From Mustelus asterias (Eukaryota), in NCBI RefSeq assembly GCF_964213995.1, contig NC_135803.1, positions 9,982,001-10,046,000 of the forward strand: DNA of 64,000 nucleotides, given 5' to 3'. The notes under the pieces are model-generated. The model saw nothing but the letters and a program-made list of their open reading frames with translations. It ran no database searches and was not told where the DNA came from. The first letter of the stretch is position 1; each line of letters opens with the position of its first letter. Below, in pieces: positions 7,269 through 44,775 of the stretch. Made by a program: the position numbers and the translations under genes.

Positions 7269-8600
7269 GAGGCATAAACAGTGATTTATAAATGTCACGC
7301 CTAACTTCCTCACTTTTGTGCCCTACCTCTGTGTGGAAAGTCAAGTCAAGGAACCTATACGCCTCTCTGGAAGCCTTCTTAACTTACGAAAACCTCTAAC
7401 TTTTGTTAGCGTGTGCCCCAGGCTTCTCCGTTCCCGTATCAATTTAATACTTGCAACATGTAATTAATTTTGCCCTTCTTTATACATTCTATGCAATTTT
7501 TCCTTTCGCGCAGCGTGATTATATGAGTAAATAGAACCATAGAAAATTACAGCTCAGAAACAGGCCTTTTGGCCCTTCTTGTCTGTGCCGAACCATTTTT
7601 TGCCGAGTCCCACTGACCTGCACTTGGACCATATCCCTCCACACCCCTCTCATCCATGAACCCGTCCAAGTTTTTCTTAAATGTTAAAAGTGACCCCGCA
7701 TTTACCACTTTATCCGGCCTCTCATTCCACACTCCCACCACGCTCTGCGTGAAGAAGCCCTCCCTTCCCCTAATATACCCTTCAAACGTTTCTCCTTTCA
7801 CCCTTAACCCATGCGCTCTGGTTTTTCTCTCCCCTAGCCTCAGTGGAAAAAGCCTGCTTGCATTCACTCTATCTATACCCATCAAAATCTTATACACCTC
7901 TATCAAATCTCCCCTCATTCTTCTACGCTCCAGGGAGTAAAGACCCAACCTATTCAAACTCTCTCTGTAACTCAGCTTCTCAAGTCCCGGCAACATCCTT
8001 GTGAACCTTCTCTGCACTCTTTCAACCTTATTTAGATCCTTCCTGTATCTAGGTGACCAAAACTGTACACAATACTCTAAACTCGGCCTCACCAATGCCT
8101 TATATAACCTTACCATAACACTCCAACCTTTATACTCGATACTCCGATTTATAAAGGCCAATGTACCAAAGGCACTCTTTACGACGCGATCCACCTGTGA
8201 CGTCACTTTTAGGGATTCTGTACCTGTATTCCCAGATCCCTCTGTTGAACTGCACTCTTCAGATTCCTACCATTTACCCTGTACGTTCTACTTTGTTTGT
8301 CCTTCCAAAGTGCAATATCTCACACTTGTCTGCGTTAAGTTCCATTTGCCATTTTTTAGCCCATTTTTCTAGTTGGCCCAAATCCCTCTGCAAGCTTTGA
8401 AAACCTTCCTCACTGTCCACTACACCTCCAATCTTTGTATCATCAGCAAATTTGCTGATCCAATTGACCACATTATCATCCAGATCATTGATATAAATGA
8501 CTAACAACAATGGACCCAACACCGATCCCTGCGGCACACCACTAGTAACAGTTTTAACAACACCAGGTTAATGTCCAACAGGTTTATTTGGTAGCAAATA

Positions 8601-8637
8601 CCATTAGCTTTCAGAGCGCCGCTCCTTCGTCAGATGG
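8601..8637 (-). ncRNA. Minimal type-I hammerhead ribozyme (mirror copy)
   Basis: Reverse complement reads CCAU-CUGACGA-A-GGAGC(ggc)GCUCU-GAAAGCUA-AUGG. The core is intact, with one G-U pair in stem II. Confidence 0.75.
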
Positions 8638-8655
8638 AGTGGAAAGGTTTCCACT

Positions 8656-8692
8656 CCATCTGACGAAGGAGCAGCGCTCCGAAAGCTAATGG
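8656..8692 (+). ncRNA. Minimal type-I hammerhead ribozyme
   Basis: CCAU-CUGACGA-A-GGAGC(agc)GCUCC-GAA-AGCU-A/AUGG. Stem I is CCAU:AUGG, stem II is 5 bp and stem III is the palindrome AGCU. Predicted cleavage is after 8688. Confidence 0.85.
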
Positions 8693-11408
8693 TATTTGCT
8701 ACCAAATAAATCTGTTGGACTTTAACCTGGTGTTGTTAAAACTGTTACTGTGTTTACCCCAGTCCAACGCCAGCATCTCCACATCATGCACACCTCTAGT
8801 CACAGGCCTCCACTCAGGGAAGCAATCCTCCACAACCACTCTCTGGCTTCTTCCATTGAGCCAGTGTCTAATCCAATTTACTACCTCCCCATGTATCCCC
8901 AGCGACTGAACCTTCCCATGAGGGACCTTGTCAAAGGCCTTGCTGAAATCCAGGTAGACAACATCCACCGCCTTCCCTTCATCCACTTTCCTGGTAACCT
9001 CCTCGAAAATCTCTAATAGATTGGTCAAACATGACCTACCACGCACAAAGCCATGTTGACTCTCCCTAATAAGTCCCTGTCTATCCAAATATTTGTAGAC
9101 CCTATCCCTTATCACACCGTCCAATGACTTGCCCACCACCGACGTCAAACTTACTGGCCTATAATTTCCCGGATTTCTTTTGGAACCTTTTTTAAACAAC
9201 AGAACAACATGAGCCACCCTCCAATCACCCAGCACTTCCCCGTGAATACTGACATTTTAAACATGTCTGCCAGGGCCCCTGCAAGTTCAACACGAGCTTC
9301 CCTCAAGGTCCGTGGGAATACCCTTTCCGGTCCTGGGGATTTATCCACTCTGATTTGCCTCAAGACAGCAAGCACCTCCTCCCCTTTAATCTGTAAAGGT
9401 TCCATGACCTCCCTACCTTTTGCCCTATTTCCGTAGACTCCATGCCCGTTTCCTCAGTAAATACGGATGCAAAAAAACCATTTAGTATCTCCCCCACCTC
9501 TTTTAGTTCCATACACAGTCTACCACTCTGGTCTTCAAGAGGACGAATTTTATCCCTCACTATCCTTTTGCTCCTAACATACCTATAGAGGTTCTTTGGA
9601 TTTTCCTTCACTCTGTCTGGCAAAGCAACCTCATGTCTTCTTCTAGCCCTCCTGATTTCCCTCTTAAGTAGCTTCTTGCACTTTTTATACTCCTCGAGCA
9701 TCTGGTCTGTTCCTTGCTCCCTTTACATTTCATACAACTCTCTCTTCCTCTCAATCAGTGTTACAATCTCCCTCGAGAACCAAGGATCCTTATTCCTATT
9801 TACTTTGCCTTTAGTCCTGACAGGAACATACAAACTCTGCACTCTCAAAATTTCTCCTTTGAAGTCCTCCCACTTTCCATTTACATCCTTACCAGAGAAC
9901 AGCCTGTGCCAATCCACACTTCCCAGATCCCTTCTCATTTAATCAAATTTGGCCTTTTTCCAGTTCAGAACTTCAACCCGAGGACCAGAACTATCCTTAT
10001 CCATGATCAGGTTGAAACTAATGTCATTATGATCACTGGATCCAAAATATTCCCTCACACTCACATCCATCACCTGTCCTAACTCGCTTCCCAATAGGAG
10101 ATCCAATATCACATCTTCTCTAGTTTGCACCTCCATAGGCTGATGTAGAAAATTTTCCTGAACACATTTTACAAACTCTACCCCGTCTAAACCTTTAACA
10201 GTATGCGAGCCCCAATCCATATGTGGAAAATTAAAATCCCCTACTATCACAACTTTGTGTTTCTTGCAGTTGTCAGTTATCTCTCTGCTGATTTGCTCCT
10301 CCAATTCTCGCTGACTATTGGGTGGTCTATAATACAACCCCATTAATGTGGTCATACCTTTCCTGTTTCTCAGCTCCACCCATAGGGCCTCTGTAGACAA
10401 GCTCCCTAATCTATCCTGCCTGAATACCGCTGTAACATTTTCCCTGACGAACAATGCCACCCCCCGCCCCACCTTTTATCCCTCTGCCCCTATCCCGCCT
10501 GAAACATTGGAACCCTGGAACATTGAGCTGCCAGTTCTGCCCCTCCTCTAGCCAAGTTTGACTAATGGCTATAATGTCATATTTCCATGTGTCTATCCAC
10601 GCCTTCAGCTCATCTGCCTTCCCCATAATACTCCTGGCATTGAAATAGACACACCTCAAAAGGTTATTTCCACCACACTCAACCCTTCCATTGGTGATTT
10701 TGCTTGAACTAACCTGTCTTTTTACCCCTGCTCCACTATCTTCTCTGGCACTCTGATTCCCATTCCCCTGCAAATCTAGTTTAAACGCTCTCCAATAACA
10801 GTAGCAAACCTCCCTGCAAGTATAATGGTCCCCTTGTCGTTTAGGTGTCACCCGACTCTTTTGTACAGGTCCCACCTGCCCCAGACGAGGTCCCAATGAT
10901 CCAAGAGTCGGAAACCCTGCCCCCTACACCAGTTTCTCAGCCACGTGTTCATCCGCCCAAGCATCCTACTCCTACCCTCACTGGCACGTGATGTCATCAA
11001 TTACCCTAGAACCCAAGGGGATTTGAGCTTTGGAGTGTGGGGTGGATGGAACCAAGCAGAGACCGGGCAACTGATCCTATTTCAGTGACTCACTCTGGCC
11101 AGTGACCTCGCTTTGCACTTAGATCTTGGGCTGAAATAGCTTGCTAGCAATTGCTGCATGGGTTCACATTCGGGGACTAACTATCAGAAGAAATAAGAGA
11201 AGGAGCAGCCAGGAGATGGCGCCCAAGAACAAATCAACATCTTTCAGAAAGGAAAGGGGAGGAAGATGGGGCTAATATGCATTCAGGATTCCCTGATCAC
11301 ACTCCCACGAGGAATATCCACCCATTCACCCTTAAAGGCAATGAATGTTAAGGGACTAAAAACAAAATACAAGATGACTATCTATTGCATTTTATTCTCT
11401 AAAACAAG

Positions 11409-11532
11409 GTTCCAAAAGCAGTTTGCTCCGATCCCTGTCCTAATGGAACAAGAAGGGCAGCAATAAAAGGTCAACCCATTTGCTGCTTTGACTGCATACG
11501 CTGTGCTGAGGGTGAAATAAGCAACACGACTG
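11409..11532 (+). CDS. V2R gene A exon 5 (cysteine-rich NCD3G domain)
   Basis: [41 protein letters not shown]; 124 nt. Confidence 0.93.
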
Positions 11533-11643
11533 GTAAGAATAAGCAGGAGTACGCATGTTACAAATAATTTAGCTACGATTCATCTCCGAATATGGAATGA
11601 TTTGAATCATGTCACTTTCAGTTTCGACTGTGTTTGTCTTTAG

Positions 11644-12536
11644 ACTCAACAGAATGCATTCGCTGTCCGATGGAATACCGGTCTAATGCTCACAGAGACC
11701 AATGCATACCGAAGCAAATTCAGTTTCTTTCCTTTGAGGAAATCATGGGGATTATTTTGGTCTCGCTCGCATTACTTGGAGCTTGCATTAGTATAATTGT
11801 CCTTGTAACGTTCTACCTTCACAGAAACACACCTATTGTTAAGGCGAATAACTCGGAGTTGAGCTTTTTGCTTCTTATCGCGTTAACGCTTTGTTTTTTG
11901 TGCTCAGTGACATTCATCGGAGAACCTTCAGGCTGGTCCTGTGCATTACGCCATGTAGCATTTGGTATTACATTTGTTCTTTGCATTTCTTGCGTTCTGT
12001 GCAAAACAATTGTTGTGGTGATGGCATTCAATGCAACGCTTCCGAACAACAATCTCATGAAGTGGTTTGGACCCACACAACAGCGTTTAACTGTTTTAGT
12101 TCTAGCACTTGTACAAAGTTTAATATGTGCTGTCTGGCTAACTCTATCGCCACCCCATCCTGAAAAAAACAGTGACTATTTTAAGGAGATAATTGTCTAT
12201 GAATGCCATGTAGGGTCTGCAATAGCCTTTTACTGTGTATTAGGTTACATTGGATTTCTGTCTTGCGTGTGTTTTGTGGCTGCCTTTCTAGCTCGAAAAC
12301 TTCCTGATAATTTCAACGAAGCGAAACACATCACTTTTAGTATGCTTATCTTTTGTGCCGTTTGGATAACTTTCATTCCAGCGTATGTAAGTTCTCCTGG
12401 GAAATATACTGTTGCGGTAGAAATATTTGCCATTCTGTCCTCCAGTTTTGGTTTGCTGGTTTGCATTTTTGCGCCTAAATGTTATATTATCCTTCTGAGA
12501 CAAGAAATGAATACGAAGAAATGCTTGATGGGTTAA
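11644..12536 (+). CDS. V2R gene A exon 6 (class C 7TM domain)
   Basis: [37 protein letters not shown] and FAPKCY motifs. Confidence 0.95.
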
Positions 12537-13119
12537 ATTGTTCCAATGAATCATTGACTCAAACAGCGCAGTTGCAGACCATTCGCCTTGTGTGCTCTCC
12601 TTGCAAGAATTAGCCATTTAACCCAACTATATTTCTCTTTCCCCCACTGTCCTTCGCAATATTTGACAATTCTTTACATATAATGTTGATGGGGCTCACA
12701 ATGCAATTGAGCCAGATGTTGCTTTCAAGGCTACACTATTTCCAAGTTGAAACTCACGTTGCAGTGTTACGAATAAAATTGTAAGATGTTATTCAAATAA
12801 AAGAACTGGAAAAAGATTTCAATGTCATAAACAAGAGAATTCTGTGACAATGTATACTATATTTGAGATGTAATGATGCGAATCAAATAAATGTAAAAAC
12901 TCGTAGCAAGGAAATGCCTGGAAGATTGGAAATCTACGTTAAAGCAAAGATGCAACTGACAAAATAATCAGCGAAGTTCAAAAAAAAACTCTGTGGCATC
13001 CCACGTTCATCTCTGCACAGAAGGCAGCGTGTCCTAAATTCTATCCCTCATGTTAGTTTGTTGTAATTGTTCCATGAGAACTCCGCTTTTGACGAACGCC
13101 ATTCTCTTCCTGTTCCCCA

Positions 13120-13820
13120 TAACAACAACACTTTTAATGTAATAAAACGTCCCAAAGTGTTTCACGAGAGCATTATAAAGCAAAAGATTTGAGCATAATG
13201 CAAGAGAGTGGGACTAGTTGGCCAGTGCAGACTGGGTGGGCCGAATGGCCGCCCTTTGCCCTGTTGCGATTTTTTGTGAATTTGTGTTTACACACGTAGT
13301 TTCATGGTCGATACTGAGGAAAATGAATTTAAGCAATCCATACAACTAAGAGTGGTAGATTTACGGACGGAATTTCAGAGCTTAAGACTGAGGTAACTGA
13401 ACATATGACCAGTAGTGGTGTAGCAATTAAAATAGGGAAACTTCATGAGGTCAGAATTACATGAGGGCAGATCGAAGTTCCTCTAATTTTCTTTTTGTCT
13501 GAGTGGGTGATTTCTGGTTTATTTTTGTTATGCTCAGCCGTACACATGTGGTCCCTTAAAGGTGTGGGCCTAGATAGCTGGGAGGGTTGCGGGCATGTAT
13601 TCATCACATAGATGAGTTGCTACTTTACCGGGAGCTCGTACGGGCCAGCGAGAACAAGGCTGAAAAGTGAATGGGACTTGGGGTGAGTAAGAACACAGGT
13701 TACCGAGTTTTGGGGGACCTCAAGGCTGCAGAGTGCAGAATGTGGGAGACCAGCCAATGCAGTCCGTGTTGAAAGTATTCAAGTCCGTGGGCAACAGAAT
13801 TATGAATGAGGCTTGCTTAT
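13120..13820 (-). mobile_element. Old L2-like LINE 3' fragments
   Basis: Resembles a degenerate reverse-complemented L2 3' end (ttttaatgtaataaaacgtcccaaagtg; ggaatttcagagcttaag). Partly repeated at 51030-51400. Confidence 0.4.
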
Positions 13821-14399
13821 TGCATCCCAATACATTAATTACACAATCTTCATTTTAATAAAAAAATGTCGAGATGCTTTCGTGCATGCTTTTGAAATAT
13901 CCTATGCGGCTCAATTTGTGGCACGGGTTCGACCAATCAACACAAAAGTCTTTTGTAACTTTCAACATTTTCAGCATTCCTTGCTTTGATCAAATATACA
14001 TTTTTCTTTGCGAAGCACTCTCCTATCGGAATTTCTCTCGAATTCCCCGAATTCCCCAGAAGACTTCACCGCTTCCCATTCATTCAGACCTCGTTCTGAT
14101 ACAATTGTAATTGGTAATTAAATTGCAATGGTTCAAAAACTCATAATTTTATTGTCCCACTAAAAAAATGCCTCACGCACGACGTTCCATTTTTAAAAAA
14201 GTTAACAATAAACAATCATTTATTTTGACTGTGGGGGTGATTTTCAGTGTAGTTGCCGTTGCACAAAGAACCGTGACTCTTCACTGAACATATTTGGTGA
14301 TTTTCTTCACATCCAAACTGATTACCTTGCCGACCTATTCTTCGTTTGCATGTGGAGCTGTGAGGCAGCAGTGCTAACCACTGCGTCACCGTGCCGCCC

Positions 14400-15590
14400 A
14401 TAGTTGCCCCCTCGTTCTAGAATCTGCAACACGTGGAAATAATTTATCTTTATCTTCTCTGTCATTTTCTGTTAATATCTTGAATGCTTCGATCAGATCA
14501 TCCCCTTAACCTTCTAAATTCTAGGGAAAACAGGCCTAATTGTTGTAATCTCTCTCTGAATTCCAGGTATCATTCTTGTGAATCTATTCTGCACTCCCTG
14601 CAAGGCCTATATATCCTTCCTAAGATATGATGTCCAGATCTGCTCAAGTGGTATCTACGTAAGGAGTCTAACAACACCAGGTTAAAGTCCAACAGGTTTA
14701 TCTGGTAGCAAACGCCAGGGTTTTGTACAGCTGCAGTATAACGTCTACGTCATAATACTCCAGTCTTATAGATATAAGGGCTAGCTTTCCGTTAGTCTTC
14801 TTGATTATTTTCCGCCCCTGTAATTGACATTTTAAAGATTTATAACCTGTGCTACCCCCACCTCCCTAAGTCTCTTTGGACATCCACTGTATTTAACTTC
14901 ATACCATCTAGAAAATACCACGATACATAGATTTTCGGCCCAGAATGGATAACCTGACACGTGCTTATATTGAAATCCATCTGCCACAGTTTTGCCCATT
15001 TTCCTCGTCTATCAACATCCCTTTGTAATTCATGCTAATATCTACATGGTCTACAATACCGCCTAACTTTGTGTCATCAGCAAATTTGGATATATGATTA
15101 TCTATGCCATTATCCAAGTCCACATAATGTGAACAATTGAGGCCTCAGCACAGATCTACTAGTCACACCCTGCCATTTTGAGTACCTACCCATTATCCCT
15201 ACATTCCGTTGCCTGCCACTCAACCAATTTCCCAGCCATGTCAGTAAATTGCCTCAATTCCGTGGGCAATTCATGTGTTAACAGTCTTTGATGTGGGACT
15301 TTTTCAAATGTCTTCTGGAGGTCCATATAAACAACATCCATAGGCATTCTCTTGCCCAGTGCATAAATCCCCTCTTCAAGAGAATCAGTGAGTTTTGTTA
15401 GGCATGACCTATCTGTTATGATCCTATGCTGGCACTCCCAGAGTAACTGAACATTTTCGTGATGTTCAGTTAAAACTATCATTGATTATGGACTCCAACA
15501 ATTTCCCCATCACAGAGGTTAGACTAACCGATCTGTAATTCCCTAGTTTTCCTCTTTCAGCCTTCTTGAAAAGCGGAATGAGATGTGCAA
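14400..15590 (-). mobile_element. Old degenerate CR1 RT fragment
   Basis: Minus ORF with SCLTKL and DVVYMDLQKTFEKVPHQRLL; tttgtgtcatcagcaaattt encodes KFADDTK. Paralog at 51430-52570. Confidence 0.8.
14657..14712 (-). mobile_element. PLE pseudo-LTR terminal fragment (about 55 bp)
   Basis: aacaacaccaggttaaagtccaacaggtttatctggtagcaaa. Absent from the paralogous site gtatct|cgccag at about 51695. Confidence 0.8.
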
Positions 15591-15713
15591 TAGTACTGAG
15601 CAAACGGTGAAGGAGGAGAGGAAATTCGCAAACATGTTGTGTCATTCCGATGATGTGGTGTCCAGACCTGCGTGATATCTAACCAGGGTTTGTAGAGCTG
15701 CAGCATAACTTCT

Positions 15714-17845: not shown

Positions 17846-18289
17846 TGTTCAGGCGAACTTGCTTGACCAGTATGTTCTTAGCCCAAGTAAGAAATAAACG
17901 TTTCTGGAGCTGTTGCCCTGGAATGAGGTGGACCAAATTGGACTAGGTACCTGTGCAGGAGCATTTGGCAAGCGTCAGCGTAATATCATTTGGCTTCCAA
18001 TAGTAATGGACAAAAGCAATGGCCAATCTAAAATAGAACTTCGATATTGGAAATGGATTAAATTTCATGGGATAAAATGGATAAAATGGAACGAAAAGAC
18101 TGACATGAAAAACTAAATATACAATGAGTAATCTTCAAAGGGGAAATGCTGCAGGCACAGGCCTCTTATAACACGGGTGAAAGATAGTGGGACCAAAGTC
18201 AGGACTCATTGGATGACGAGGGTAATAGGGACTATAACGAAACACAGAGAAGGGTGTGAATGCGTTGTATAAGATTTTGGGTTTGTCTG

Positions 18290-19095
18290 GCAGGTACAAC
18301 CACAGCGCTGTGATGACGCGAGTTCCAGGATTTTGACCCAGCAACAGTGAAGGAACAGTGACATAGTTTAAAGTCGAAATGATGTGTGGCATGAAGTGGA
18401 ACCTGCACAAAGTTGTGCCCGGCAGATCTATTACTAATATTCTACGAGCCGTCCGTTGACCAGAAACTGAACTGGGCCAACCATACAAAGTCTGTGGCTA
18501 CAAGAACAAGTCAGAGTCTGGGAATTCTATGGTGAGTAACTCATCTCCAGACTTCCCAAAGCGTGTTCACCATCTATCTACAAGGCACAAGTCAGGAGTC
18601 TAATGCAATACTATCCACTTCTCTGCATGCATGCACTTTCAGAAGCACTCAAGAAACTTGACATGAGCCAGGCCAAAATAGCCCGTTTGATTAGCACCGA
18701 ATCCACCTTCAAAGTTGGCTCTCTCCACAACTGGTGCACAGTGGCAGCAGTGTGTACCATCTACACGGGACATTGCAGCAATTCACTAAGGCTCCTTCGA
18801 TAACATCTCCCAACCCCATCTCTACCATTTAGAAGAACAACGGCAACAGATGCATGGGAACACCACTTTTTACAAGTTCCACTTCATGCCACACATTATT
18901 TCGATTTTAAACTATGCCACTGTTCCTTCGCTGTCGCTGGGTCAGAAACCTGGAACTCTCTTCTTAACAAAGAGGTTAGTACGAACGCCACATGGAGTGC
19001 AGTGGTTCAAGCAGAAGGCATCTTCTCAAGTGTGTGAGAAACGGGCAATAAATGCTGGCCCAGCCAGAGATGCTCACATTCCGTGAAAGAATCAG
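18290..19095 (+). mobile_element. LINE 3' fragment (CR1/L2-superfamily, YKAQVRS-type) with an inverted duplicated segment
   Basis: tacaaggcacaagtcaggagt... The segment 18290-18420 is the reverse complement of 18856-18970. The same family lies on the minus strand at 24460-24840. Confidence 0.6.
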
Positions 19096-20144: not shown

Positions 20145-20437
20145 TCATAGAATCCTACAGTGCAGAAGGAGGCCATTCGACAACAATCCTACCTCGGCCT
20201 TTCCCCATAACCCCATGCATTTAGCCTTGCTCGTTCCCCCTGACACATAGGGGCAATTTAGCATGGCCAATCCACCAAACCCGTGCATCTTTCGAGTGTG
20301 AGAGGAAACTGGAGCACCCGGAGGAAACCCGCGCAGACATAGGGAGAATGTGCAACCTCTACACAAACAGCGACCCAAGTGCCAATCGAACCCGAGTCCC
20401 TGGTGCAGTGAGGCAGCAGTGCTAATCACTGTGCCAC
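20145..20437 (-). mobile_element. HE1-type SINE
   Basis: Reverse-complemented head and tail; ortholog at 57345-57660. Confidence 0.85.
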
Positions 20438-21187
20438 TTGCATTTCACTGCAACCTAATACTCTTGCCACTGAAATTTCGAGCCAATGACATCTCAACTA
20501 TGGTGGATCCTACTTCTGGCGCCATGTGATAGGTTTTGGGTTCGAGAGCCGCAGATACCTAAGATAGGCAGACGTCAGCAATTTTAAGGTCATTATTAAG
20601 AGTATTCAGAAGAAGCAGTTTAGATATAATGCGCTAGTTAAACGTACACAATGCTTGGCATTTGGGAGAGCTTCACTTATCCTAGACGACAAATAGAAGT
20701 TTGGCATAGAGTGTGTCGATCTCAGTGGCTTGTGGCAATATTCTCTTCACTAGCCAAAATGTTATGGAACTCTTCCTTTAGTATTCGTTTATCTTTCCTG
20801 GTCCATATTTCAGTTCAAGAAGGTGGCTGTTTGACAAAGACTGCCACTGATGACGAATGACCGCTGACTCAAGCACTTGTTAACATATTTCTCGGAGATG
20901 GTAATTTACCCTATGTGAATCCTCTGTTCAAACATGCCTGATGTGGAGATGCCGTGTCTGACATGTCTGACCAATGAATACAGGACAGGTACCCAAGATG
21001 TCAGGGTTGACAACTTTCCCAACTGTCCATCATTTAGGCTTCACGTCCCATTTTTTATTTATCTTAAGCTGGAGGCTATTTTCAAGACACCGGAATATGC
21101 GTGGCACAAGAGGCTTTCATGCTTTTGGGTTCAGGAATGTTTGGAGAGTCTGGTGACTTCAATGCAGGGAATGCTTAAGGGAGTAAA

Positions 21188-30000: not shown

Positions 30001-33000
30001 GCAGGCGGGACGGAGTGTAATGCATATAACTAGAATTATCATTGTCCTCAGAGTGAAATTTGACATGATTACATTTGAATTCTCCACAGGTCAGCTACTT
30101 TTCCACCTGCGCATGCCTGAGTAACAGGAAGAAATATCCATCATTTTTCAGAACCATACCAAGCGACTATTTCCAGGCGAGAGCCTTAGCCCAACTCGTA
30201 AAGCGTTTTGGTTGGACATGGATCGGGACGATCAAAAACAACGATGATTACGGTAACTTTGGGATGCAAGCTTTCACCGAAGCTGTCCAACAATTAGGTG
30301 TTTGCATTGCTTTCTCCGAATCCATTCACAGAACAGACCCCAGAGACAAGTTACTGAGAATCGTAGATGCTGTAAAGAAATCTTCCACGAAAGTTGTTGT
30401 GGCATTCGTTGCTTCTAAAGAAATGATAATTTTACTGAATGAGATTGTCCGACAGAACGTGACGGGTGTGCAATGGATAGGAAGCGAGGCTTGGGTATCC
30501 ACGCAATTTCTACCTCCGGAAGAAAGCAGACGATTTGTCTCCGGCACACTCGGAGTCGCAATTCGCCAGGTCGATATACCAGGACTGAGAGAATTTCTCA
30601 TGGATGTCCATCCTTCTCTGTATCCAGGCAACCTTTTAGTGAATGAGTTTTGGGAATCAACTTTTGGCTGCACGGTGATGAGTACAGCGAACAAAACAGA
30701 TCAAGTGCAACCTGCTTCGTTGAAAAAATGCACTGGGAGTGAAGTTTTACAGACAGTACACAATAAATTTACTGGTGTTTCGCAGTACAGGGTTACTTAC
30801 AATGTATATAAAGCTACGTACGCAATAGCCCACGCTCTTCACAATATGCTGTCGTGTGAAAATGGCAACGGACCATTTCCCCAAAAAGGTTGTGCAAATA
30901 TCTCAAGTTTTCAACCTTGGCAGGTAAGGCGGTCAATGTTTAAGTTTAAGTTTTGTTTTAAGTTCATGCCTTCAAGTATACTTGTTAGTGTCAGAAATTG
31001 GCTTAATTAACACTGCATTGAAGTTACTTTGAAAATCCCCTAATCGCCACACTCCGGCGCCTGTTCGTATACACTGACGTTGAATTTAGCATGGTCAATA
31101 TGCCTAATCAACACACTTTTCGGACTGTGGAAGTGAACCGGAGCACCGGGAGGAAACTCACGCAGACACAGTGAGAACGTGCAGACTCCACACAGACAGT
31201 GACCCACATCGGGGGTGGAACCCAGGTCCCTGGCGTTGTGAGGCAGCACTATTTATCACTGTGTCGCCGGTAATATTTAAGCAGCCGGATAATTTAAAAT
31301 TAGTATGTTTATAAACTGTTTAAGTTCTTATAGGAAATAAAAGCGATATTAAATGTCTCACGTTTCTTCCAAATAAAATGTTGTTAAATTCTCCTTTCTC
31401 GATTCTATTTCAAAGCTTCTGCATTATATGAAAACAGTCAATTTTACTACCAAGATCGGTGAAAATATCTATTTTGATGAAAATGGAGACCCGGTGGCCA
31501 CATATGATATCGTAAACTGGCAGCCCAATTCCGCTGGCGGGGTGGATATTGTAGGCGTTGGAGTCTATGACGGATCAGCTCCCCCAGGCCAGGCATTTGT
31601 GATAAAGGACGAAGCAATTGTATGGAATGGAGGTCAGATTACGGTAGGGACAATAAGGAGACACAAGTGCGCCAAATGGTGCGGTTGAAATCGAACATAT
31701 AAGCCGTTCACCTTCCTGAATGCAATTGTCTTGAAATTCCAGTGAAGCTTGAATACACATATTAACCTAAGTGAGTAGACTGCTGTTGTTTAGACAGTTA
31801 AACTTGTGTCAAAAATTAAAATATACTCTAGGAGGGTGATGTTTCGGGGAATGCATGAGGGAATTTTAGTTCTAGTGCTGAATGGTATCATGAATAACGT
31901 GAACAATTTATTCGTGTGAAATTCTTGCATGAGACGCCCAGGTTGGTCTGTATAAGTGCCTCTAAATTTAAGACTGTGAATTGTATGGTCAATTCTGAAT
32001 TTTTCCAGGACGATATCATGACGACACTTAGCTGTGTGCCAGTAAGTCAACTAGCCGGCACGTGTGACATCTACTGTGATGATTTGAGACCAATGAAGTT
32101 TGCTAGTGCTGTTGGGAAGGGTTTGAACTAACTTGGCTTGGGAGTGGCATTCTGAGACAAGATTCAGCAGGGGGCGATGCAGAGCCAAAATTTGTAGAGT
32201 CAGCAAGTGAGGCATTGACGTTATAGACCACTTACGGCACAGGCGAGTTTGGCAAGATTGGATGGTATTTATTATAATGAAAAAAGTCTGCCGAGAAAGG
32301 CAGATGAGTTGAGGGCACAAACTAAATCATGGACGATTAGTATCATTGCTCAGAGGTGGTTGAGGCAACGGCAGGGTTGGCAGCTTAATATTCCTGGATA
32401 TAAAATTTTCAGGCGAGACAGGGAAGGAGGTTAAAGATGAGGGAGTGTCCGAATTTTAATCAGAGTGTCAAATTCAGCAGTTATGACGGACAACATCTTA
32501 GAAGGCTCTTTCAATTAAGCCATACGTGTCGAACTTAACAACCACAAGGGAGCAAGCACATTGCAGGGTATGTTCTATAGCCCCCCTAACAATCCGAGAG
32601 GAACATAAGGGCAGATATGTAGGCAAATTTCAGAGAAAAGTGAAAGTAAAAGGTTAGTGGTAGTGGTTTCAACTTCCCCTGCATTATCTGGGGTAGCCAT
32701 AGTGCGATAGGTCTTGTGGAAGCAGAATTCTTAAAATTTGTCCAGGAGAACATTTTAAGCTGCTGTGTACAAGGTCCCAGACGATAGGGCAGACCTGGAC
32801 TTAATTTTAAATAACAAAGCCGGGCAAGTGGTTGAAGTATCAACGGGGCAGCATTTTTCAGACAGCGATTATCACTCCGTTAGATTCAATATTGTTATGG
32901 AAAAGCACAGCGATGGGGCAGAAATCAAAGTTCTAAACTGGGGCAAGGCCGATTTTAATAAGATCCTTCTCAGATATTGTGTCTACTATATAACATTATA

Positions 33001-35410: not shown

Positions 35411-36961
35411 TTCTGCCTCCAAGGGTTTGTAATGCAACCTCGCTGAAGCAAATGTATTCACTCGTAGTAAATTCTGTTATCATCATTTTAATGTTACGAA
35501 TTTGAACATTGGAATAAACTACAAAGTACTTGCAAAATGTGGAAATTTTGCTCTGGACAAATGTAACTTTGTGGGTGCTTGTACTCAAATCAGTCATCAC
35601 TTTTTAAATAAACGTCTCTTGTTCTTTCATAGTCGGAGTGTGTTTGGGATACAGGCGGAGGAGGAAGTGTAGGAGGGAACAGAGAAGAAAGATGGGAGAT
35701 CACCACAGAAGGTGGTCGAGTGGAACACAACAATACTTCAATGCTAACCTCACCAGGCCTTGATGAAAATATAAATTTGTTTTTAGAAATGAATGTAAGG
35801 TGCTGATAAATAATTCTGTCTCTTTTCGCAATTTTTGTTTCATTTGCATTTCATTTCCAGAAAGGTTTGTGCGCCACGAAACACTAGCTTGTATTTAATT
35901 GAAAGCCAGGATATGCCTGCAAAGGAGAAAGGCTTGTTTGATATAATGTGAGGACAGACATGCAAACCAGTGGGGGAAAGGTCAAGTCTTGTTGTATCCA
36001 CGAAATAAAGTTTATTAACATGTAAACAAGCACCACAGGACAGGCCACAATGCAATATCAAGGATCACATAACTTCAACAATCACAAACACACTATTCAT
36101 CTGCAATTAACTCCGGATGTCACTGAGTGACGGCAGGATATCCATACAGGGGGAGGGCGGGGGGCAATCAGCCAGAAGTCGTAATCCACAATTACATAGA
36201 TAAGTAGGGGACGAGGTTCTGGTAGCAGATTTCAGAGAGTTGCAAAATAAATTTAAAAGAGGCTCAAGAATAGTAGTCTCAGGATTATTCGCAGTTCCAA
36301 GTACCAGTGATAATAGTAATATGAGGATTGATGGATTAAATACGTGGCTGGAGAAATGGTCATGGAGGGATGCCATCAGCTTTCTAAGGTAGTGGGACCA
36401 GTTTTGAGGTAGGTTACATCTTAGCAGGGTTTACCATGGATGTCCTAGCAGGAAGGATGCTGGTGTCGTGGGGTTGGGTTTGAATTAGTTTATCAGGGGC
36501 ATGGGAACTTGAAGGATGGTCCAAATCGGAAGGGAGTAAACTTGGGTAACAGGATGTAATAATGGGGCTAGAAGGCAAGAACAACATAGAAAATAACTGA
36601 GTGTGCGTCAAATGTGGAGTGGTGTCAAACATACGGAGTTAACGGAGCTCCACCTGAATATACACAGCATTCGTAACAATGTAAATGATCTGAAGGCATA
36701 ATTACTGATAAATGGATATGACATAATTGTCATGGTGGAAACATGGTTGCATGGTGAACAAGACTGGGAACTGAATATCCAAACATATTCGACTGTTAGG
36801 AAGGAGAGACCAGAAGGGAAAGGAGGTGGGTTTGGCTGAGAATAGGGGCTGAGATCCGTGCAGTGATAAGGGAGAATCGGAAGAACAATGTGCAGAATCT
36901 GCTTGGATGGAGCTAGGATGCATCAAATTACAGCGGACATTGCTTCAACTTGGTTTTAGGC

Positions 36962-38229
36962 TGTTATGATCTGTTGTAACTGGATGGGGAGATCCCAGAT
37001 TGGAACCCTGAATTTTTTAGAAAACGTGGAGGAACAGAGTCGCAGGGCCACTGATTAGTTTTAACGACAATACAAAACTGTTAAACATGAAAAGTTTTCT
37101 TATAATGCAATTTTCCTTTATTCCCGCTTAGTTTCACAAATATATATGTATTTTAAGGTTTCCATGGAACACACAGTATATCTTAGGCTACAATGTTCTC
37201 AGGGACACACTGTCCCTTTAAACACACAAGCTGCTTATGGTCAGACACACTCCAATCTACACCCGAGTGAATTTCTGTGGATTTCTCTTCAAAGTCCCCC
37301 TCCCCAGAAGATTCTTACACAATGAACCATCTTGTTTCACTGAACTTTAGTTTCCACGTGAGCAATTTCAAATTCCACTTTCAAAAGATCCACATCCAAA
37401 TATTCTTGTAAACAATGTTGTCCCTTGGTTGTTTGTGTTAAAAATCCATTCCAGGTTTTCCAAAGTATTGTTTCAGACAAAACGTCTGCTCCACGTTTAA
37501 CTAGGAATCCAGCATCCTGGTTTGACATCTCCATCTTCAGGATTTTCTTGTCTTGACTGTTGCACAAAGTCTTCACAATTTCTTTACCTGTCGCTTCCCA
37601 AACTGTTAAGATAGCACCAAACATTTGATTTAACTCTGGAGTCTGCCTCCCAACTGTAAATCTGGTACAACAGCCGTCCCTTCAAAAAAGAACAATTTAT
37701 TTGTTTTCCCCTTGAAATCTCCTGAAGATGAACCCCTTGTTCCACTTCTTGGTCTCTGTTCTCTTAACTTCAGTCTTTCTAAGACATTCTTTCTGTCTCA
37801 ATTCCCTGGTTGTCTGGAGAATATCCGGTTCTTTGAGAAGTCTCCTTATTTTTGCAGTTCAATATGTGTGCTAGCAGAGTTCAGAGTGTTCACTCACTAG
37901 CATTCTATCTCCAACTGGCCTGGATTGCAGTTGAACTAAGAACAAAGAAAATCCCACTGGAAAGTGGTCCCTAGTTCCTAAACAACTGTTTTTACTTCTC
38001 CAAGCTGTTTTTTGCTTTTCACATCATAACCTCTCTAAGCACAATAGAAGTACTGTTTGAATTGAAATTAAACCACCCGATACATATGATGACCTTTGTC
38101 CAGCAGGAAACTAACTGCAGATCGGATTACATAGAAGGACTAAATGAAAAACACCTGAAACTATATCTTCTTTCCCATATTTACCAATACAAATATTAAT
38201 TCCTTGAAAATACCTTTGTTTTCCTGACA
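36962..38229. mobile_element. Solo LTR (1268 bp; Gypsy- or ERV-like)
   Basis: Begins TGTTA and ends TGACA, flanked by a 4-bp TSD aggc (36958-36961, 38230-38233). Removing it restores the CR1 endonuclease RPS motif. Confidence 0.75.
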
Positions 38230-39189
38230 AGGCCATCGAAAAGCAATGGTAATGTGGGACGTGTTATCAGTTAGGAAATGAAAGAAGCGTTTGACATGGT
38301 CATGACATGTGGTCATGAGTGACTTCAATCTGAAAATAGGCTTCTTCAACTAAATAAGGACCAATGCTGTGAAAGACAAGTTTCTGGAGTGTATTAGCTA
38401 TGGGTTTCGAGAGCAGTACGTTGAGAAGCCAACTAGAGTACACACTATTCAATATTTAGTACAATTAAAAAAAATGGCTAATTAATAATCCAGCTGCAAA
38501 AGAACCTCTAAGAATGAGCGATCACGATATGATGGAATATTACATTATGTTTAAAAGTGAGGAAGGCCAATCAGCAACCAAGGTGTTAAAGCTGAATAAA
38601 AGGAATTATGAAGACATGAGGGAAAAATTGGCTGAGATTGATTGGGAAAATGCAATAAAAATGCAATAAATGCCTGAGCATAGGGAAGAGATAGTCTTCA
38701 AAAAAATTACATAGCGTATAGCACCTAATCATTCCTTTAGGATTCAAAACCCCACAAAGCCAGTCAACCGTGGCTGCCGAAGGCTGTTAAGGATTGTATA
38801 AGTTTGAAATAAAAGGCTTTTAATTTGGCAGAAATAGTGGTAAACCCGATGATTGACAGGATTTTGGAATCCAGCAAAGGAAGGCCAAGACTCTGCTAAA
38901 GAAAGTGAGAACAAAATATGGATGCATTCCAGCAAAAACAGAAAACAAACTGTGAAAGCTTGTATAGGTATGTATAAAGAAAGCGATTTGCAAAGACAAA
39001 TTATAGGCAGAGTCAGGAGAGTTGATCAAGGGGAATGGAGAAATGGCAGGAAGCTGAGTGATTACTTTGTGTCTGAAGATACAGGAAATCTCACACTGTA
39101 GAGACCCAAGGGACGAGAGAGAATGTGGAGTCGAAGGAAATTAGTATAAGAACGTTGCATCAGACAAATTGGTAGGGATGAAAGTTGAT

Positions 39190-40380
39190 GGCCGGGATTC
39201 TCCCAGTCCCCTGCGCTGCTCGAGTCGCACAGCGGGCCGGGAGACATCAGCGGTGGGCCTGTAGTAGGACACGCGACCAGCATCCCACCGATCGTAAGTC
39301 CCCCAGGCCCTTTTTTCCCATGTAATCAGCCCCACACCAGAAATCAGTGCGGGGCTCATTACCTTCCGGAAATCGCTATTTCCATGTGAATAGAGAGCCA
39401 TAGATGGTAGTCTCCCGCCCCATTAGTGTCTCCCCATACAGGGAGAGCCTCGAATCATCGGGGTGACCAGGAATGCTCACCCCGCTGGTGGGGGCAGAGG
39501 CCATTGAGGCCGCCCGGGAGGTTGGGGGCAGGGAGATGACCCTTGGGCAGTGCCAGGCTGGCACTGCCCAGATGGCACATTGGCACTATCCACTGAGCAC
39601 CTGGCACTGCCCACCAAGCACCACGCAATGCCAAGGGGCAACGGCCAGTGCCAATGGGGCAGGGCTGGAGCAGGTGAGGCCTACTGGGGCGGGGCCTGCT
39701 GGATGGGGCTACTGGGGGGCAATGAGTTGTGATGGGGGAGGCCGCTGCGCACTCTGAAATGCTATTAGTGGGGGAGTGAGGGAGGGGGAGGGGGGGGGGG
39801 ATCCGGGCTGGCCTTAGGGGTGGTCAAGCTGGCCATGGGGATGGTTCGGGTTTGGCCATGCTGAAGGTCAGAGCTGGTCTGGAGGGGGTCAGGGCTGGCC
39901 ACAGGGGCGGGGAGAACGGGGCTGACAATGTGGTGCTGGCGATTGAGGCTGGGGAGGGGGGCGGAGAGGGTCGGGTTGGCCAGCACTTGGGGGCTGGCGT
40001 TGGGTAGGCAGAGGTCGGGTAGGCAGAGGATGGGAGGGGGAGCGGGGGTGCGGTGGGGGGGGGGGGGGAGGGGGGCGGGGCGGGGGGGGTTGCTGCCCAG
40101 GGAATCTGGAGGCCGGCGATATCAGGGCCAGTGAGCAGGCGCCGATATCCGCACTGACAGATCAGCGCGAGCGCAGTGGCACGTTCAGCACTTTGCTGCC
40201 AGCCTCTCCAGCGGGAATAGCCCCGCCCCGCCAACCCCCTCCCTCCACTTTCCGTTGTGAAACCTTCGGAGGCAGAGTTCCGGAGAATCGTTCTGTTAAG
40301 TACGCCCAGAAAATGGGGCGGGACATTCTCCCATTTTCCCACCCGTTGGGTACTTTGTTTCTTTGGGAGAATCCCGGTTC
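39190..40380. mobile_element. GC-rich non-autonomous DNA transposon/MITE (about 1.19 kb)
   Basis: Perfect 14-bp terminal inverted repeat ccgggattctccca (39192-39205) / tgggagaatcccgg (40364-40377) with AT flanks. It interrupts contiguous CR1 sequence and has no transposase ORF. Confidence 0.75.
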
Positions 40381-40933
40381 ATAACTTCTCAAAATCTAAT
40401 ATTACGCATCCCAGAGTGTTGAAAGAAGTTGCCCTGGAGATGGTGGATGCATTGGTGCTCATCTTCCAAAATTCTATAGATTCTGGAATGGTTCCTGAAG
40501 ATTGTAAGGTAGCAAACGTCGCCCCACTATTTATTCCCACCAGGAAAAAGCAGACGATTTATTTCTGGCGCGATTGGAATTGCAATTCGTAAAGTCAGCT
40601 TACCAGGACTGAGTACCCAGGAAACCTTTTGGTGAAGGAGTTTTGGGAGAGGACATTCAACTGTACACTAAAGAACATGGTAAACAGAACAACTGAAACT
40701 CAACCTGACTCTGAGATCCAAGCATGCGCAGCAAAAGAGAATCTACACACTGCCCGCAATGCGTTTACAGATGTCACTGAGTACAGAATTACTTACAACA
40801 TATATAAAGCCACTTATGCCATAGCTCATGCTCTCCATGATAAGTTTTCGTGTGAAACTGGTAAAGGACCATTTTACAATAACAGCTGTGCAGATATTTC
40901 AAACTTACCACCATGGCAGGCAAAGAATAGTAA

Positions 40934-41229
40934 TGATGTGGACCTGCAGAGTTTCACTGGCTGTCTTGTCTGGAGACAATACACATCTTTTTAGCCTGTC
41001 TTGATGCTCTCTCCACTCCCATTGTTTTGTTTCTTAAAGACTGGATTAGTTGTAAGTATTCGCATTCCAACCATTATTCATGTAAATTGAGTCTGTGTCT
41101 TTATAAGTTCTGTTTGTGAACAGAATTCCCACTCACCTGAAGAAGGGGCTTAGAGCCTCGAAAGCTTGTGTGGCTTTTGCTACCAAATAAACCTGTTGGA
41201 CTTTAACCTGGTGTTGTTAAACTTCTTAC
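40934..41229 (+). mobile_element. PLE pseudo-LTR insertion (296 bp) at the exon 3 donor of A'
   Basis: TSD (c/t)aaagaatagtaa at 40921-40933 and 41230-41242. Ends with accaaataaacctgttggactttaacctggtgttgttaaacttcttac. Absent in gene A. Confidence 0.9.
41129..41173 (+). ncRNA. Minimal type-I hammerhead ribozyme (second variant)
   Basis: CCACUCAC-CUGAAGA-A-GGGGC(uuaga)GCCUC-GAA-AGCU-U/GUGUGG. The stem sequences differ from the 8656 copy but pairing is retained. Confidence 0.8.
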
Positions 41230-41387
41230 TAAAGAATAGTAAAGCAGTGAATGTTGTTTGCCCTTTGAGGAGATGTCCCTGTTGATAAAATAGCCTTTCT
41301 GGAAATGAAATATGACTTTGATGCTTACATGCATATTTGAAAGAATTTACCATCGATATACTAACCGTTCTATTTCCTTTTATAAAG

Positions 41388-41615
41388 CTACTGCATTATC
41401 TGAAAGCAGTAAAATTCAGAACTATGATTGGCGAAACAGTATATTTTGATGAAAATGGCGACCCAGTCCCAACCTATGACATTGTCAACTGGCAGCCAGA
41501 TGCATTTGGTGACACAAAGATTTCAACTGTTGGATACTATGATGGATCTGCATTGCCAGGACAAGAATTTGTCATAAGCGAAGGTGAAATAAAATGGAGT
41601 GGCTCTCAGATTATG
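41388..41615 (+). pseudogene. V2R A' exon 4
   Basis: Near-identical to 5813-6040; 228 nt. Confidence 0.9.
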
Positions 41616-42370
41616 GTAAGGATATTCCATTCATGACAGTATGTGGGGTGATCTCACGGCTGCTTGTCCGAGTTTGCTCTCGGTTTTAGGAAGAAATAAA
41701 ATCGGTAAATGTGTCCAAACTCGTTAAGGGAACAAAGCTTCACATGTAGTTAACAATTGCCAAATTGCTCCAGAATGTATAAATCTGTCATTTACCAACT
41801 TTGGTCTAATTAGAGCTTTTCTGCTATGTGCTGCATTTCGAGTAAATGTTGACTAAATCAATTATCAAGTGCGCGAGACACAATGGCTAAGACCTATGTC
41901 AATTTTAAAATATGTTCGGGTACCAGTGCTTTGCGGTTTTCGCGATAACCCACCGCGACCTCATCGGCGGTGAGAAGAATCAAATAACTCTTTCTACTAG
42001 TGGAAACATGCAGTGGGCCCAATGAGCTTCTTCACAAAATCATAGAATAACATAACACCGAAAGCGGCCATTCGGCCCACGCTTTCTGTGACAACGCATT
42101 GAAAGATCTATTTAATTTTTATCGCTGCTTTTCTCTCAGAACCTTGTAATTGTTTCAAGTATTTCTTCAATTCCCTTTTGAAACTTACTTCATGAATCTG
42201 CTTCGGCACAATTTCAGGCACTTTGTGAAACGCTTTCTTCTTATTTTTCTTGTGGGTTTTTTTTTGCAAATCACTTTAATCTTCCCTTTCTGCCTCTGGA
42301 GGGACTTGCTCCTTATGTGCTCTATCAAAACCGTTTTGAACAGCTTTATTTAATACCCCTTCACCTCTTT

Positions 42371-44775
42371 GGGCGGCACGGTAGCACAGTGGTTAGTACT
42401 GCTGCTTCACAGCTCCAGGGACCTAGGTCCGATTCCCGACTTGGGCCACTGCCTGTGTGGAGTTTTGATGTGGAGATGCCGGCGTTGGACTGGGGAGAAC
42501 ACAGTAAGAGTTTTCACAACACCAGGTTAAAGTCCAACAGGTTTATTTGGTAGCAAACACCATCAGCTTTCGGAGCGCTGCTCCTTCGTCAGATGGAGTG
42601 GAAATGTGCTCGCAAACAGGGCACAGAGACACAGAAATCAAGTTACAGAATACTGATCAGAATGCGAATCCCTACAGCCAGCCAGATCTTAAAGATACAG
42701 ACAATGTGGGTGGAGGGAGCATTAAGCACAGGTTAAAGAGATGTGTATTGTCTCCAGACAGGACAGCCTGCAAGTCCAGGAGGCATGCTGTGGGGGTTAC
42801 TGATCATGTGACATAAATCCAACATCCCGGTTTAGGCCGTCCTCATGTGTGTGGAACTTGGCTATCAGTTTCTGCTCAGCGACTCTGCGCTGTCGTGTGT
42901 CGTGAAGGCCGCCTTGGAGAACGCTTGCCTGAAGATCAGAGGCTGAATGTCCGTGACTGCTGAAGTGCTCCCCCACAGGAAGAGAACAGTCTTGCCTGGT
43001 GATTGTCGAGCGGTGTTCATTCAACCGTTGTCGTAGCGTCTGCATGGTTTCCCCAATGTACCATGCCTCGGGACATCCTTTCCTGCAGCGTATCAGGTAG
43101 AAAACGTTGGCCGAGTTGCAAGAGTAGGTACCGTGTACCTGGTAGATGGTGATCTCACGTGAGATGGTGGCATCCGTGTCGATGATCCGGCACGTCTTGC
43201 AGAGGTTGCTGTGACAGGGTTGTGTGGTGTTGTGGTCACTGTTCTCCTGAAGGCTGGGTAGTTTGCTGCGTACAATTGTCTGTTTGAGGTTGCGCGGTTG
43301 TTTGATGGCAAGAAGTGGGGATGTGGGGATGGCCTTGGCGAGATGTTCGTCTTCATCAATGACATGTTGAAGGCTCCGGAGGAGATGCCATAGCTTCTCG
43401 GCTCTGGGGAAGTACTGGACGACGAAGGGTACTCTGTCCACCGTGTCCCGTGTTTGTCTTCTGAGGAGGTCGGTGCGGTTTTTCGCTGTGGCACATCGGA
43501 ACTGTTGATCGATGAGTCGAGCGCCATATCCTGTTCTTATGAGGGCATCTTTCAGCGTCTGGAGGTGTCTGTTGCGATCCTCCTCATCCGAGCAGATCCT
43601 GTGTATTCGGAGGGCTTGTCCATAGGGGATGGCTTCTTTTACGTGTTTAGGGTGGAAGCTGGAGAAGTGGAGCATCGTGAGGTTATCCGTGGGCTTGCGG
43701 TACAGTGAGGTGCTGAGGTGACCGTCCTTAATGGAGACGCGTGCATCCAAGAATGCAACCAATTCCGAAGAGTAGTCCATGGTGAGTCAGATGGTGGAAT
43801 GGAACTTGTTGATGTCATCATATAGTTGTTTCAGTGATTGCTCACCATGACTCCAAAGGAAGAAAATATCATCGATGTATCTAGTGTATAGCATCGGTTG
43901 AAGGTCCTGTGCGGTGAAGAAGTCTTGTTCGAACCTGTGCATGAAGATGTTGGCATATTGAAGTGCGAATTCGGTCCCCATGGCTGTTCCGTGTGTCTGG
44001 ATGAAGAACTGGTTGTTGAAGGTGAAGACATTGTGGTCCAGGATGAAGCGGATGAGTTGTAAAATTACATCAGAAAACTGGCAGTTGATGGCGTTGAGTA
44101 CTGAGGCCGTTGCAGCAATGCCATCATCGTGGGCGATGCTGGTGTAGAGTGCCGAGACATCCATTGTGACGAGGAGTGCTCCTGGTTCAACTGCTCCATG
44201 TGCGTTGAGTTTCTGTAGGAAGTCCGTAGTGTCGCGACAAAAGCTGGGGGTTCTTTGTACAATGGGTTTCAAGATGCCCTCGACATAGCCGGAGAGGTTC
44301 TCGCACAGGGTCCCATTGCCTGATACGATGGGACGGCCGGGTGTGTTTGTCTTGTGTATCTTTGGGAGGCAGTAGAGATCTCCAACGCGGGGAGTACGTG
44401 GGATGAGAGCACATTTCCACTCCATTTGATGAAGGAGCAGCACTCCAAAAGCTAATGGTGTTTGCTACCAAATAAACCTGTTGGACTTTAACCTGGTGTT
44501 GTTGAAACTCTTACTGTGTGGAGTTTGCACATTCTCCTCGTGTCTGCGTGGGTTTCCTCCGGGTGCTCCGGTCTCCTCCCACAGTCCAAAGATGTGCAGG
44601 TTAGGTTGATTGGCCATGCTAAAAATTGCCCCTTAGAGTCCTGAGATGCGTAGGTTAGAGGGATTAGCGGGTAAATATGTAGGGATATGGGGGTAGGGCC
44701 TGGCTGGAATTGTGGTCGGTGCAGACTCGATGGGCCGAATGGCCTCCATCTGCACTGTAGGGTTTCTATGGTTCT
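42371..44775 (+). mobile_element. HE1-type SINE split by the PLE (42371-42465 and 44514-44775)
   Basis: The head lies before the PLE and the body and tail after it. Absent in gene A intron 4. Confidence 0.85.
42466..44513 (-). mobile_element. Penelope-like retroelement (probably Neptune clade), 5'-truncated, RT plus GIY-YIG endonuclease, inverted pseudo-LTRs
   Basis: YCLPKIHK, GTAMG and YIDD (RT); CHSNLCKTC linker; VFYLIRC...WYIGET (GIY-YIG). One in-frame TGA at 43787-43789. Inverted arms of 109 bp at 42503-42611 and 44407-44515. 13-bp TSD ctgtgtggagttt. Confidence 0.95.

Follow-up and report, generated by a model that had tools for sequence, protein, structure and literature searches.

Inverted insertions of a Penelope-like retrotransposon in a shark V2R gene cluster suggest priming from both nicked target strands

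Introduction

In the standard picture, Penelope-like retrotransposons carry an inverted 5′-truncated copy and have a tail at one of their ends (Craig et al., 2021, PMC8557442, scheme in Fig. 2), and that paper names the origin of inverted pseudo-long terminal repeats (pseudo-LTRs) with a single tail as an open question. Here, five insertions of such an element, E1 to E5, are described in a 64,000-nt stretch of the Mustelus asterias genome (NCBI RefSeq assembly GCF_964213995.1, contig NC_135803.1, positions 9,982,001 to 10,046,000 of the forward strand), which is called the window and in whose coordinates all positions are given. The structure of three of them, E1, E2 and E3, suggests that reverse transcription was primed from both nicked target strands.

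Pen2a_Av of Adineta vaga combines an inverted pseudo-LTR with a 31-bp tail on one arm and a target duplication of 9 bp; in others the duplication is 8 or 10 bp long (PMC3846280). The shark copies share with Pen2a_Av and Pen2 (PMC3846280, PMC8557442) the adjacent inverted 5′-truncated copy, a tail of 30-40 bp at one end, one short duplication and palindromes at junctions. Unlike these, they have duplications of 11-13 bp instead of 8-10 bp and no direct pseudo-LTR pair, and their tail ends before the start codon, whereas that of Pen2a lies inside the open reading frame (ORF; first 22 codons). Palindromes at inverted junctions have been read as self-priming on an antisense template (PMC3846280, Discussion), and both papers ascribe the structure to self-priming or to resolution by the endonuclease rather than to two primers.

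A Poseidon element of Anolis carolinensis, PAc, nicks and extends both target strands in vitro, starts at the two boundaries of the tail and is predicted to form a dimer (Frangieh et al., 2024, PMC11167929). The shark family resembles PAc in two putative initiation sites that bound the tail, in the presumed nicking and extension of both target strands and in a pseudo-LTR hammerhead. Unlike the shark family, PAc has no CX2-5CxxC linker, and its start sites lie ∼111-118 nt into the ORF. In its accessible part, the PAc paper connects these properties neither with inverted copies nor with the length of the duplication.

Twin priming and the proposed dual priming were defined for LINE-1 (L1, a long interspersed nuclear element; Meyer et al., 2010, PMC2837659). 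The likeness to L1 twin priming lies in two inverted fragments within one duplication, found in three of the five shark insertions, in the second nick as a presumed primer and, in E2 and E3 but not clearly in E1, in a short inner microhomology. The poly(A) tail serves the first primer of L1, and the annealing site of the second is internal and variable, whereas the shark family has no poly(A) and both sites are fixed, 37 nt apart. Furthermore, L1 fragments do not overlap; this is also true of the arms of E2, but those of E1 and E3 repeat the same sequence. The mechanism of the family may resemble twin priming, not in its L1 form.

Results

Both target junctions of E1, E2 and E3 are element 3′ ends

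The original prediction, made from the letters of the window, had given E1, E2 and E3 sizes of 241, 296 and 2048 bp and one common order of parts. The sizes hold, and the order was borne out by the inverted arms and by alignments: each insertion has the antisense tail end first, then a strand switch, and the sense pseudo-LTR end last (Table 1). All six target junctions are element 3′ ends, three of the tail and three of the pseudo-LTR, and, when overlaps are allowed, each of the eight 3′ ends of the element in the window is found within ∼2 nt of one of the two tail boundaries. That both junctions of each insertion are 3′ ends is the strongest fact for a two-primer (twin-priming) model, and it is the arrangement that priming by both nicks would produce.

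In a family that is very abundant and whose inverted repeats are hard to assemble, one might suspect a misassembly, recombination between copies or two unrelated insertions at one site. However, a single duplication encloses both arms in all three insertions, neither arm is present at the empty sites, two bases common to both arms of E1 differ from both arms of E3, and the arms of one insertion have diverged by 4-7%, hence they are no assembly mirror. An origin of this kind is considered very improbable.

The arms of E1 (8544-8645 and 8648-8749) are 96% identical and those of E3 (42499-42614 and 44404-44519) 93%, with 4 and 7 differences, respectively, over 102 nt. Such differences are compatible with arms that were identical at insertion, as would be the case if only one nick had primed and the cDNA (complementary DNA) begun at the tail end had folded back. 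The mirror arm would then end, or be cut by the endonuclease, at the boundary of pseudo-LTR and tail and be joined to the second overhang by microhomology, and E2, E4 and E5 would be later deletions or aborted events. The arm divergence does not separate this fold-back model from the two-primer model. E1 is a perfect palindrome with a centre of 2 nt, and one contig from another genome may be a second such case; in E3 the short arm lies wholly inside the long arm and the 4-nt microhomology would permit snap-back; microhomology at the pseudo-LTR junction is expected of a repair joint; and the tail was attributed to endonuclease-mediated resolution by Craig et al. (2021, PMC8557442). Against this stands especially E2, whose arms do not overlap: its arm of ∼290 nt is absent from the arm of 5-9 nt, therefore a direct fold-back copy cannot yield it, and an extra deletion that spared just 5-9 nt of the tail arm would be needed. 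E4 in turn would need a deletion that removed the arm together with the duplication to the base, and in vitro initiation was direct at both sites and on both strands (PMC11167929). Fold-back as the origin of these copies is considered unlikely.

The palindromic centre of E1 also agrees with self-priming on an antisense transcript, with ends set by endonuclease cleavage, which was proposed for palindromic head-to-head junctions (Arkhipova et al., 2013) and is the published reading of the same architecture (PMC3846280). Alone, however, it does not explain fixed ends at the two start sites that were mapped on sense RNA in vitro, and it leaves the 5′-truncation gradient and the non-mirrored arms of E2 unexplained. 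It is regarded as improbable.

At the inner junctions, both arms of E1 stop at one base around the centre, with no clear microhomology (0-1 nt). The strand switch of E2 has 4 nt of microhomology; its first segment does match over the 9 nt originally predicted, whereas only 5 of these are unique to the tail. In E3, the predicted microhomology of 4 nt is present (44407-44410). Since homologs place an arginine ahead of the initial residues of the E3 remnant, and since one contig matches through 44411 while another ends at 44410, a microhomology of 5-6 nt is likely in E3. E2 belongs to a subfamily that is 80% identical to E3, and its extra segment of 10 nt is a trait of this subfamily in other genomes (loose ends at 42768).

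Table 1. Positions of E1 to E5 and of their parts in the window.
Feature	Positions	Strand	Remarks
E1, insertion	8547..8787
E1, left target duplication	8534..8546	.	13 bp; 3 bases common with pseudo-LTR end
E1, pseudo-LTR-end arm	8547..8645	-	102 nt with the overlap from 8544
E1, centre	8646..8647	.	2 nt; midpoint of perfect head-to-head palindrome
E1, tail-end arm	8648..8787	+	hammerhead 8656-8692; pseudo-LTR end 8749; 37-nt tail to 8786; one further, start-codon base
E1, right target duplication	8788..8800	.	1 mismatch; host is a LINE reverse transcriptase remnant, other copies carry the site once
E2, insertion	40934..41229
E2, left target duplication	40921..40933	.	12 exact bases and one mismatched base, at V2R splice donor
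E2, tail-end arm	40934..40942	-	5 unique nt and 4-nt microhomology (40939-40942)
E2, pseudo-LTR-end arm	40939..41230	+	∼290 nt; hammerhead 41133-41173 with two compensatory pairs
E2, right target duplication	41230..41242	.	empty site in paralog near 5660
E3, insertion	42466..44513
E3, left target duplication	42453..42465	.	13 bp exact, within a SINE (short interspersed nuclear element)
E3, tail	42466..42502	-	37 nt; stops immediately 5′ of the start codon of the family ORF
E3, pseudo-LTR / untranslated part	42503..42796	-	minimal type I hammerhead 42560-42596
E3, 5′-truncated ORF	42797..44410	-	reverse transcriptase, CX4CxxC linker, GIY-YIG; one in-frame stop 43787-43789
E3, inversion microhomology	44407..44412	.	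4 nt certain, 5-6 nt likely
E3, pseudo-LTR-end arm	44407..44515	+	∼107 nt
E3, right target duplication	44514..44526	.	first 6 bases also match the pseudo-LTR/tail boundary
E4	14657..14712	-	56 nt, pseudo-LTR end only; no inversion, no target duplication; paralog empty near 51690
E5, insertion	20939..20960
E5, with duplication	20932..20970	-	16-nt exact tail-end piece 20939-20954; 6-nt filler; 10-bp duplication

Target duplications and empty sites

Duplications of 13 bp had been predicted for all three insertions. The best ones found by a brute-force search are 13 bp without mismatch for E3 and 13 bp with one mismatch for E1, whereas that of E2 is exact over 12 bp only; its 13th base is supplied by the paralog, the left copy having C and both the paralog and the right copy T. 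The chance of a 13-mer with at most one mismatch at a fixed pair of junctions is p ∼6e-7, and chance is therefore excluded. Tail bases counted, the pseudo-LTR end overlaps the duplication by 6 nt in E3, 3 nt in E1 and 1 nt in E2, which corrects the 1-3 nt given earlier. The total of 10 nt over three junctions corresponds to p ∼8e-4 in a post hoc calculation. At the tail end, with the two letters after the tail included, the overlaps are 0, 1 and 1. After dropping ambiguous bases, the true stagger lies within 7-13, 9-13 and 11-13, and because of this ambiguity any fixed stagger of 11, 12 or 13 fits, 13 being the simplest common value. Nicks 13 nt apart, as proposed originally, thus fit all three insertions, although a fixed distance of 13 is not established by three copies. 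Under uniform ranges from 7-20 to 10-14, chance alone would produce three identical lengths in 0.5-4% of cases.

Empty sites had been expected in a paralog. This is true for E2 (near 5660), the sole one of E1 to E3 with such a site, whereas the other two are known from repeat copies: for E3, whose whole host SINE is missing in the paralog, six other SINE copies carry the site once, and for E1 two of the four LINE stretches listed span the site and carry it once.

Single-ended insertions

Three of the five family insertions in the window are inverted with a duplication of ∼13 bp; the other two, E4 and E5, which the original prediction did not include, are single-ended, E4 with the pseudo-LTR end and E5 with the tail end. 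Each element end can occur alone. The duplication of E5 (20932-20941 and 20961-20970) is 10 bp long with one mismatch, and the paralog is empty near 58155. Its 16-nt tail match is expected by chance at ∼3e-5 in the window and was found in none of 100 shuffles. The filler of E5 (20955-20960) copies adjacent target sequence and resembles a templated insertion of end-joining repair.

E1 to E5 belong to a Neptune/Nematis type family

E1 to E5 are copies of a shark Penelope-like retrotransposon of the Neptune/Nematis type, with reverse transcriptase (RT), GIY-YIG endonuclease, CX4CxxC linker and minimal hammerhead. The closest proteins to E3 are from sharks, with 88-93% identity in Mustelus and 77-85% in Scyliorhinus and Heptranchias, and the E3 protein is 82% identical over its full length to a shark protein of 643 aa. 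RT was identified in the single ORF of E3 by Pfam (RVT_1, E=4.7e-8, over 43787-44407). The in-frame stop at 43787-43789 is private to E3 and is lacking in nearly all other contigs. The C-terminal GIY-YIG endonuclease with two cysteines within the core (CCHH motif) was read in the translation and is conserved in the homolog alignment. A Pfam search with this piece of E3 returned no family; PF01541, which is presumably the GIY-YIG family, is present in some full-length homologs. Between RT and endonuclease lies a CX4CxxC linker whose cysteines are invariant in the homolog alignment. A CX2-5CxxC linker marks Neptune and Nematis and is absent from Penelope and Poseidon (PMC8557442); the label Poseidon, which was considered for the family, is ruled out by this motif.

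Minimal type I hammerheads have been reported for Penelope-like elements (PMC7761336), and their core motifs are present in the pseudo-LTR alignment of the family. When scored on the same sequences from which the structure model was drawn, 44 of 45 cells were paired and two of nine pairs were compensatory, both from E2, and 17 of 500 shuffles scored equally high. An Rfam search gave two chance matches and no hammerhead, and folding of five pseudo-LTR/tail pieces (z-scores -0.1 to -0.9) did not support a special structure.

The tail ends at the start codon

The tail of 37 nt is present at one end only in all three two-ended copies. One of its frames encodes residues that in the shark protein P0121 continue into the first methionine of the ORF, with the N-terminus as in P0122. 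In other genomes, three joints (among 12 listed) reach 42466 with two identical letters that complete this start codon. Because the frame and these two letters agree, the tail end corresponds to the position of the start codon, and pseudo-LTR and tail together form the 5′ untranslated region, with the tail-end start site at the start codon. This is a new detail of the family. The window holds no full-length copy, and the three joints back to the tail end, for which the kind of joint is not given, may be partial tandems.

Copies in other genomes

Contigs from four sequencing runs of four organisms (4 of 24 runs on the list) were mapped onto the reference 42436-44425. What follows covers the best 15 of 342 joints, 12 of 197 entries between letters and 24 of 4941 loose-end entries; the counts for the runs X1 and X7 are incomplete and are lower bounds. 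Contig records matching E3 numbered 100,042, 155,412, 65,734 and 32,538 in the four runs, those of X1 and X7 being minimum values, and the family is very abundant across several genomes. Depth over E3 drops from the 3′ to the 5′ side in all four.

In X7, at least 432 records end loose exactly at 42466. Their agreement is low (0.35), as unique flanks would give, and the entries listed for the other three runs do not include this position. In other genomes, too, the end of the tail is fixed. Loose ends at 42514 were seen in all runs (441, 1005, 359 and 76 records, minimum values for X1 and X7); their consensus retains the pseudo-LTR end and is lost some bases further on. They fit a slightly fuzzy pseudo-LTR end near 42500-42503 and are not a count of that end. 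Depth of the tail is ∼0.39-0.67 of that of the pseudo-LTR end, a weak hint at one tail per two ends, contig depth not being copy number.

Strand switches make up six of the best 15 of 342 joints; five of these are single contigs scattered over 42884-44093, with orientation not given, and arm length is therefore not fixed. A fixed short-arm length of ∼105 nt, which would have suited E1, E3 and one X1 contig, is ruled out by these five joints and by the ∼290-nt arm of E2. The X1 joint from 42619 to 44404 reads as a near-perfect palindrome centred near 42618 and is visible only because the reference ended in the inverted arm. A further strand-switch joint at 42550/42592, across the hammerhead, occurs in all four runs (6, 9, 3 and 1 contigs). 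Either stem II misleads the alignment or the ribozyme is a recurrent site of inversion; the joint is not used as support.

The conserved 23-nt pattern of the pseudo-LTR had no match in metagenome, viral and prokaryote genome collections. A protein-based search recovered distant relatives at 79 metagenome loci (24-49% identity). In self-comparisons, one of the 79 (L071, cut by the contig end) has a separated inverted arm of at least 40 nt, and six have local palindromes only; direct repeats are many. Because short-read contigs collapse such structures, these numbers carry no information on inversion. Four of these relatives (L050, L054, L055 and L060) are long tandem arrays of direct repeats of 1.1-2.6 kb and not inverted inserts.

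The surrounding V2R cluster

The window holds clustered genes for V2R-type receptors (Pfam ANF_receptor and 7tm_3), with a segmental duplication at an offset of ∼35-38 kb. Comparison of 42371-44770 with 6799-6803 indicates a nested history, in which the segmental duplication was followed by a SINE insertion into one arm and by E3 inserting into the SINE. The target of E2 is a V2R splice donor (40918-40922, 41230-41242) that reads GC in the left duplication copy and canonical GT in the paralog. The exon upstream of E2 is frameshifted relative to the intact copy at 30069, and so is the paralog exon at 4822-5663; therefore both exon copies are probably pseudogenes. A further inverted pair of 109 nt and 86% identity (18309-18417 and 18861-18969, 443 nt apart), with an echo in the paralog near 55307, is not of the family of E1 to E5.

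Discussion

In the two-primer model, the GIY-YIG endonuclease would nick the two strands of the target at a distance of 11-13 nt, with 13 as the most likely value, so that 3′ overhangs remain. As the junctions suggest, both target 3′ ends would prime reverse transcription on the sense RNA from a pair of internal sites separated by 37 nt, namely the tail end, directly 5′ of the start codon, and the pseudo-LTR end, and each target strand would continue into an antisense cDNA that starts at one tail boundary. The two cDNAs would extend toward each other, halt at variable points and join by end joining (E1) or, where their 3′ ends are complementary over a short stretch (4 nt in E2 and 4-6 nt in E3), by pairing of these ends, which could prime each other's second strand. 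This would yield two arms placed head to head, one of them alone with a tail, inside one duplication, while one nick priming alone would leave a single-ended scar such as E4 or E5. Pairing of target and RNA may help priming at the pseudo-LTR end, and the template could be one RNA or two, as the model allows either.

Besides the geometry of the target junctions, the model is supported by the inner microhomology in two of three insertions and by the occurrence of each end alone in E4 and E5, which are absent from the paralog. It is also favoured by the depth gradient over E3 in the four runs, by the loose ends at 42466 in X7 and by the overlaps of 6, 3 and 1 nt at the pseudo-LTR end. A start at two sites was demonstrated in vitro for a Poseidon relative from another clade and would by analogy apply to this family. 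The original proposal that both nicks prime at two fixed RNA positions is upheld in part, in that both junctions are element 3′ ends, that the tail end is fixed and that the ends occur alone, whereas the start at the pseudo-LTR end is fuzzy over several bases. Since the arms of E1 share one stop, the model needs both cDNAs of E1 to have run off the same RNA end. If they did, it explains all five copies without extra events, and on balance it is held to be the probable explanation.

Several points weigh against the model. Two-ended copies number only three. The arms of E1 stop at the same base, and the X1 contig looks similar, which independent random truncation does not predict. Deletions in larger palindromes could have left E2, E4 and E5 behind. 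The combination of one tail and one pseudo-LTR end was found in all three insertions (p=0.125 under free choice); in PAc the start site in vitro did not differ by strand and priming was not based on homology (PMC11167929), and therefore this combination is left unexplained. The tail junction of E5 has a 3-nt overlap, contrary to a clean rule of no homology at the tail end. PAc itself is from another clade and its start sites lie within the ORF (PMC11167929). Finally, the mechanism had been called stereotyped, which E4 and E5 weaken and which is too strong for a set in which three of five copies fit and two are single-ended; the palindrome of E1 is what fold-back or self-priming predicts.

Tentatively, and as a possibility rather than as the expected outcome, coupled twin priming might be the normal route of the family. 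A dimer would hold a single RNA at two RT active sites, spaced 37 nt from each other, and cut the target with a fixed stagger of 13 nt; the leading RT would start at the pseudo-LTR end, aided by pairing of target and RNA, and the trailing RT at the start codon, displacing the first cDNA. If this is true, both RTs ran off the same RNA end in the palindrome of E1, the tiny tail arm of E2 reflects a stall of the trailing RT, the short pseudo-LTR arm of E3 a stall of the leading RT, and the scars E4 and E5 the failure of one RT.

The inverted architecture was known, including the tail at one end only (PMC3846280, PMC8557442), and so were priming on both strands and the two start sites in vitro. 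The model that joins them as twin priming was not found in print: the literature search returned no paper applying twin priming to Penelope-like inversions, and as several key papers lay outside the search, absence from print is not established. Three copies alone do not prove the two-primer model, and what the analysis adds of value is a synthesis that can be tested and the location of the tail end at the start codon. As the family inserts into SINEs, LINEs and duplicated genes with readable empty sites, one long-read shark assembly would offer thousands of scorable events. If the coupled form of the two-primer model is true, it accounts for the long-known inverted pseudo-LTR with a single tail, and these elements would write both insertion ends themselves, unlike L1 and R2.

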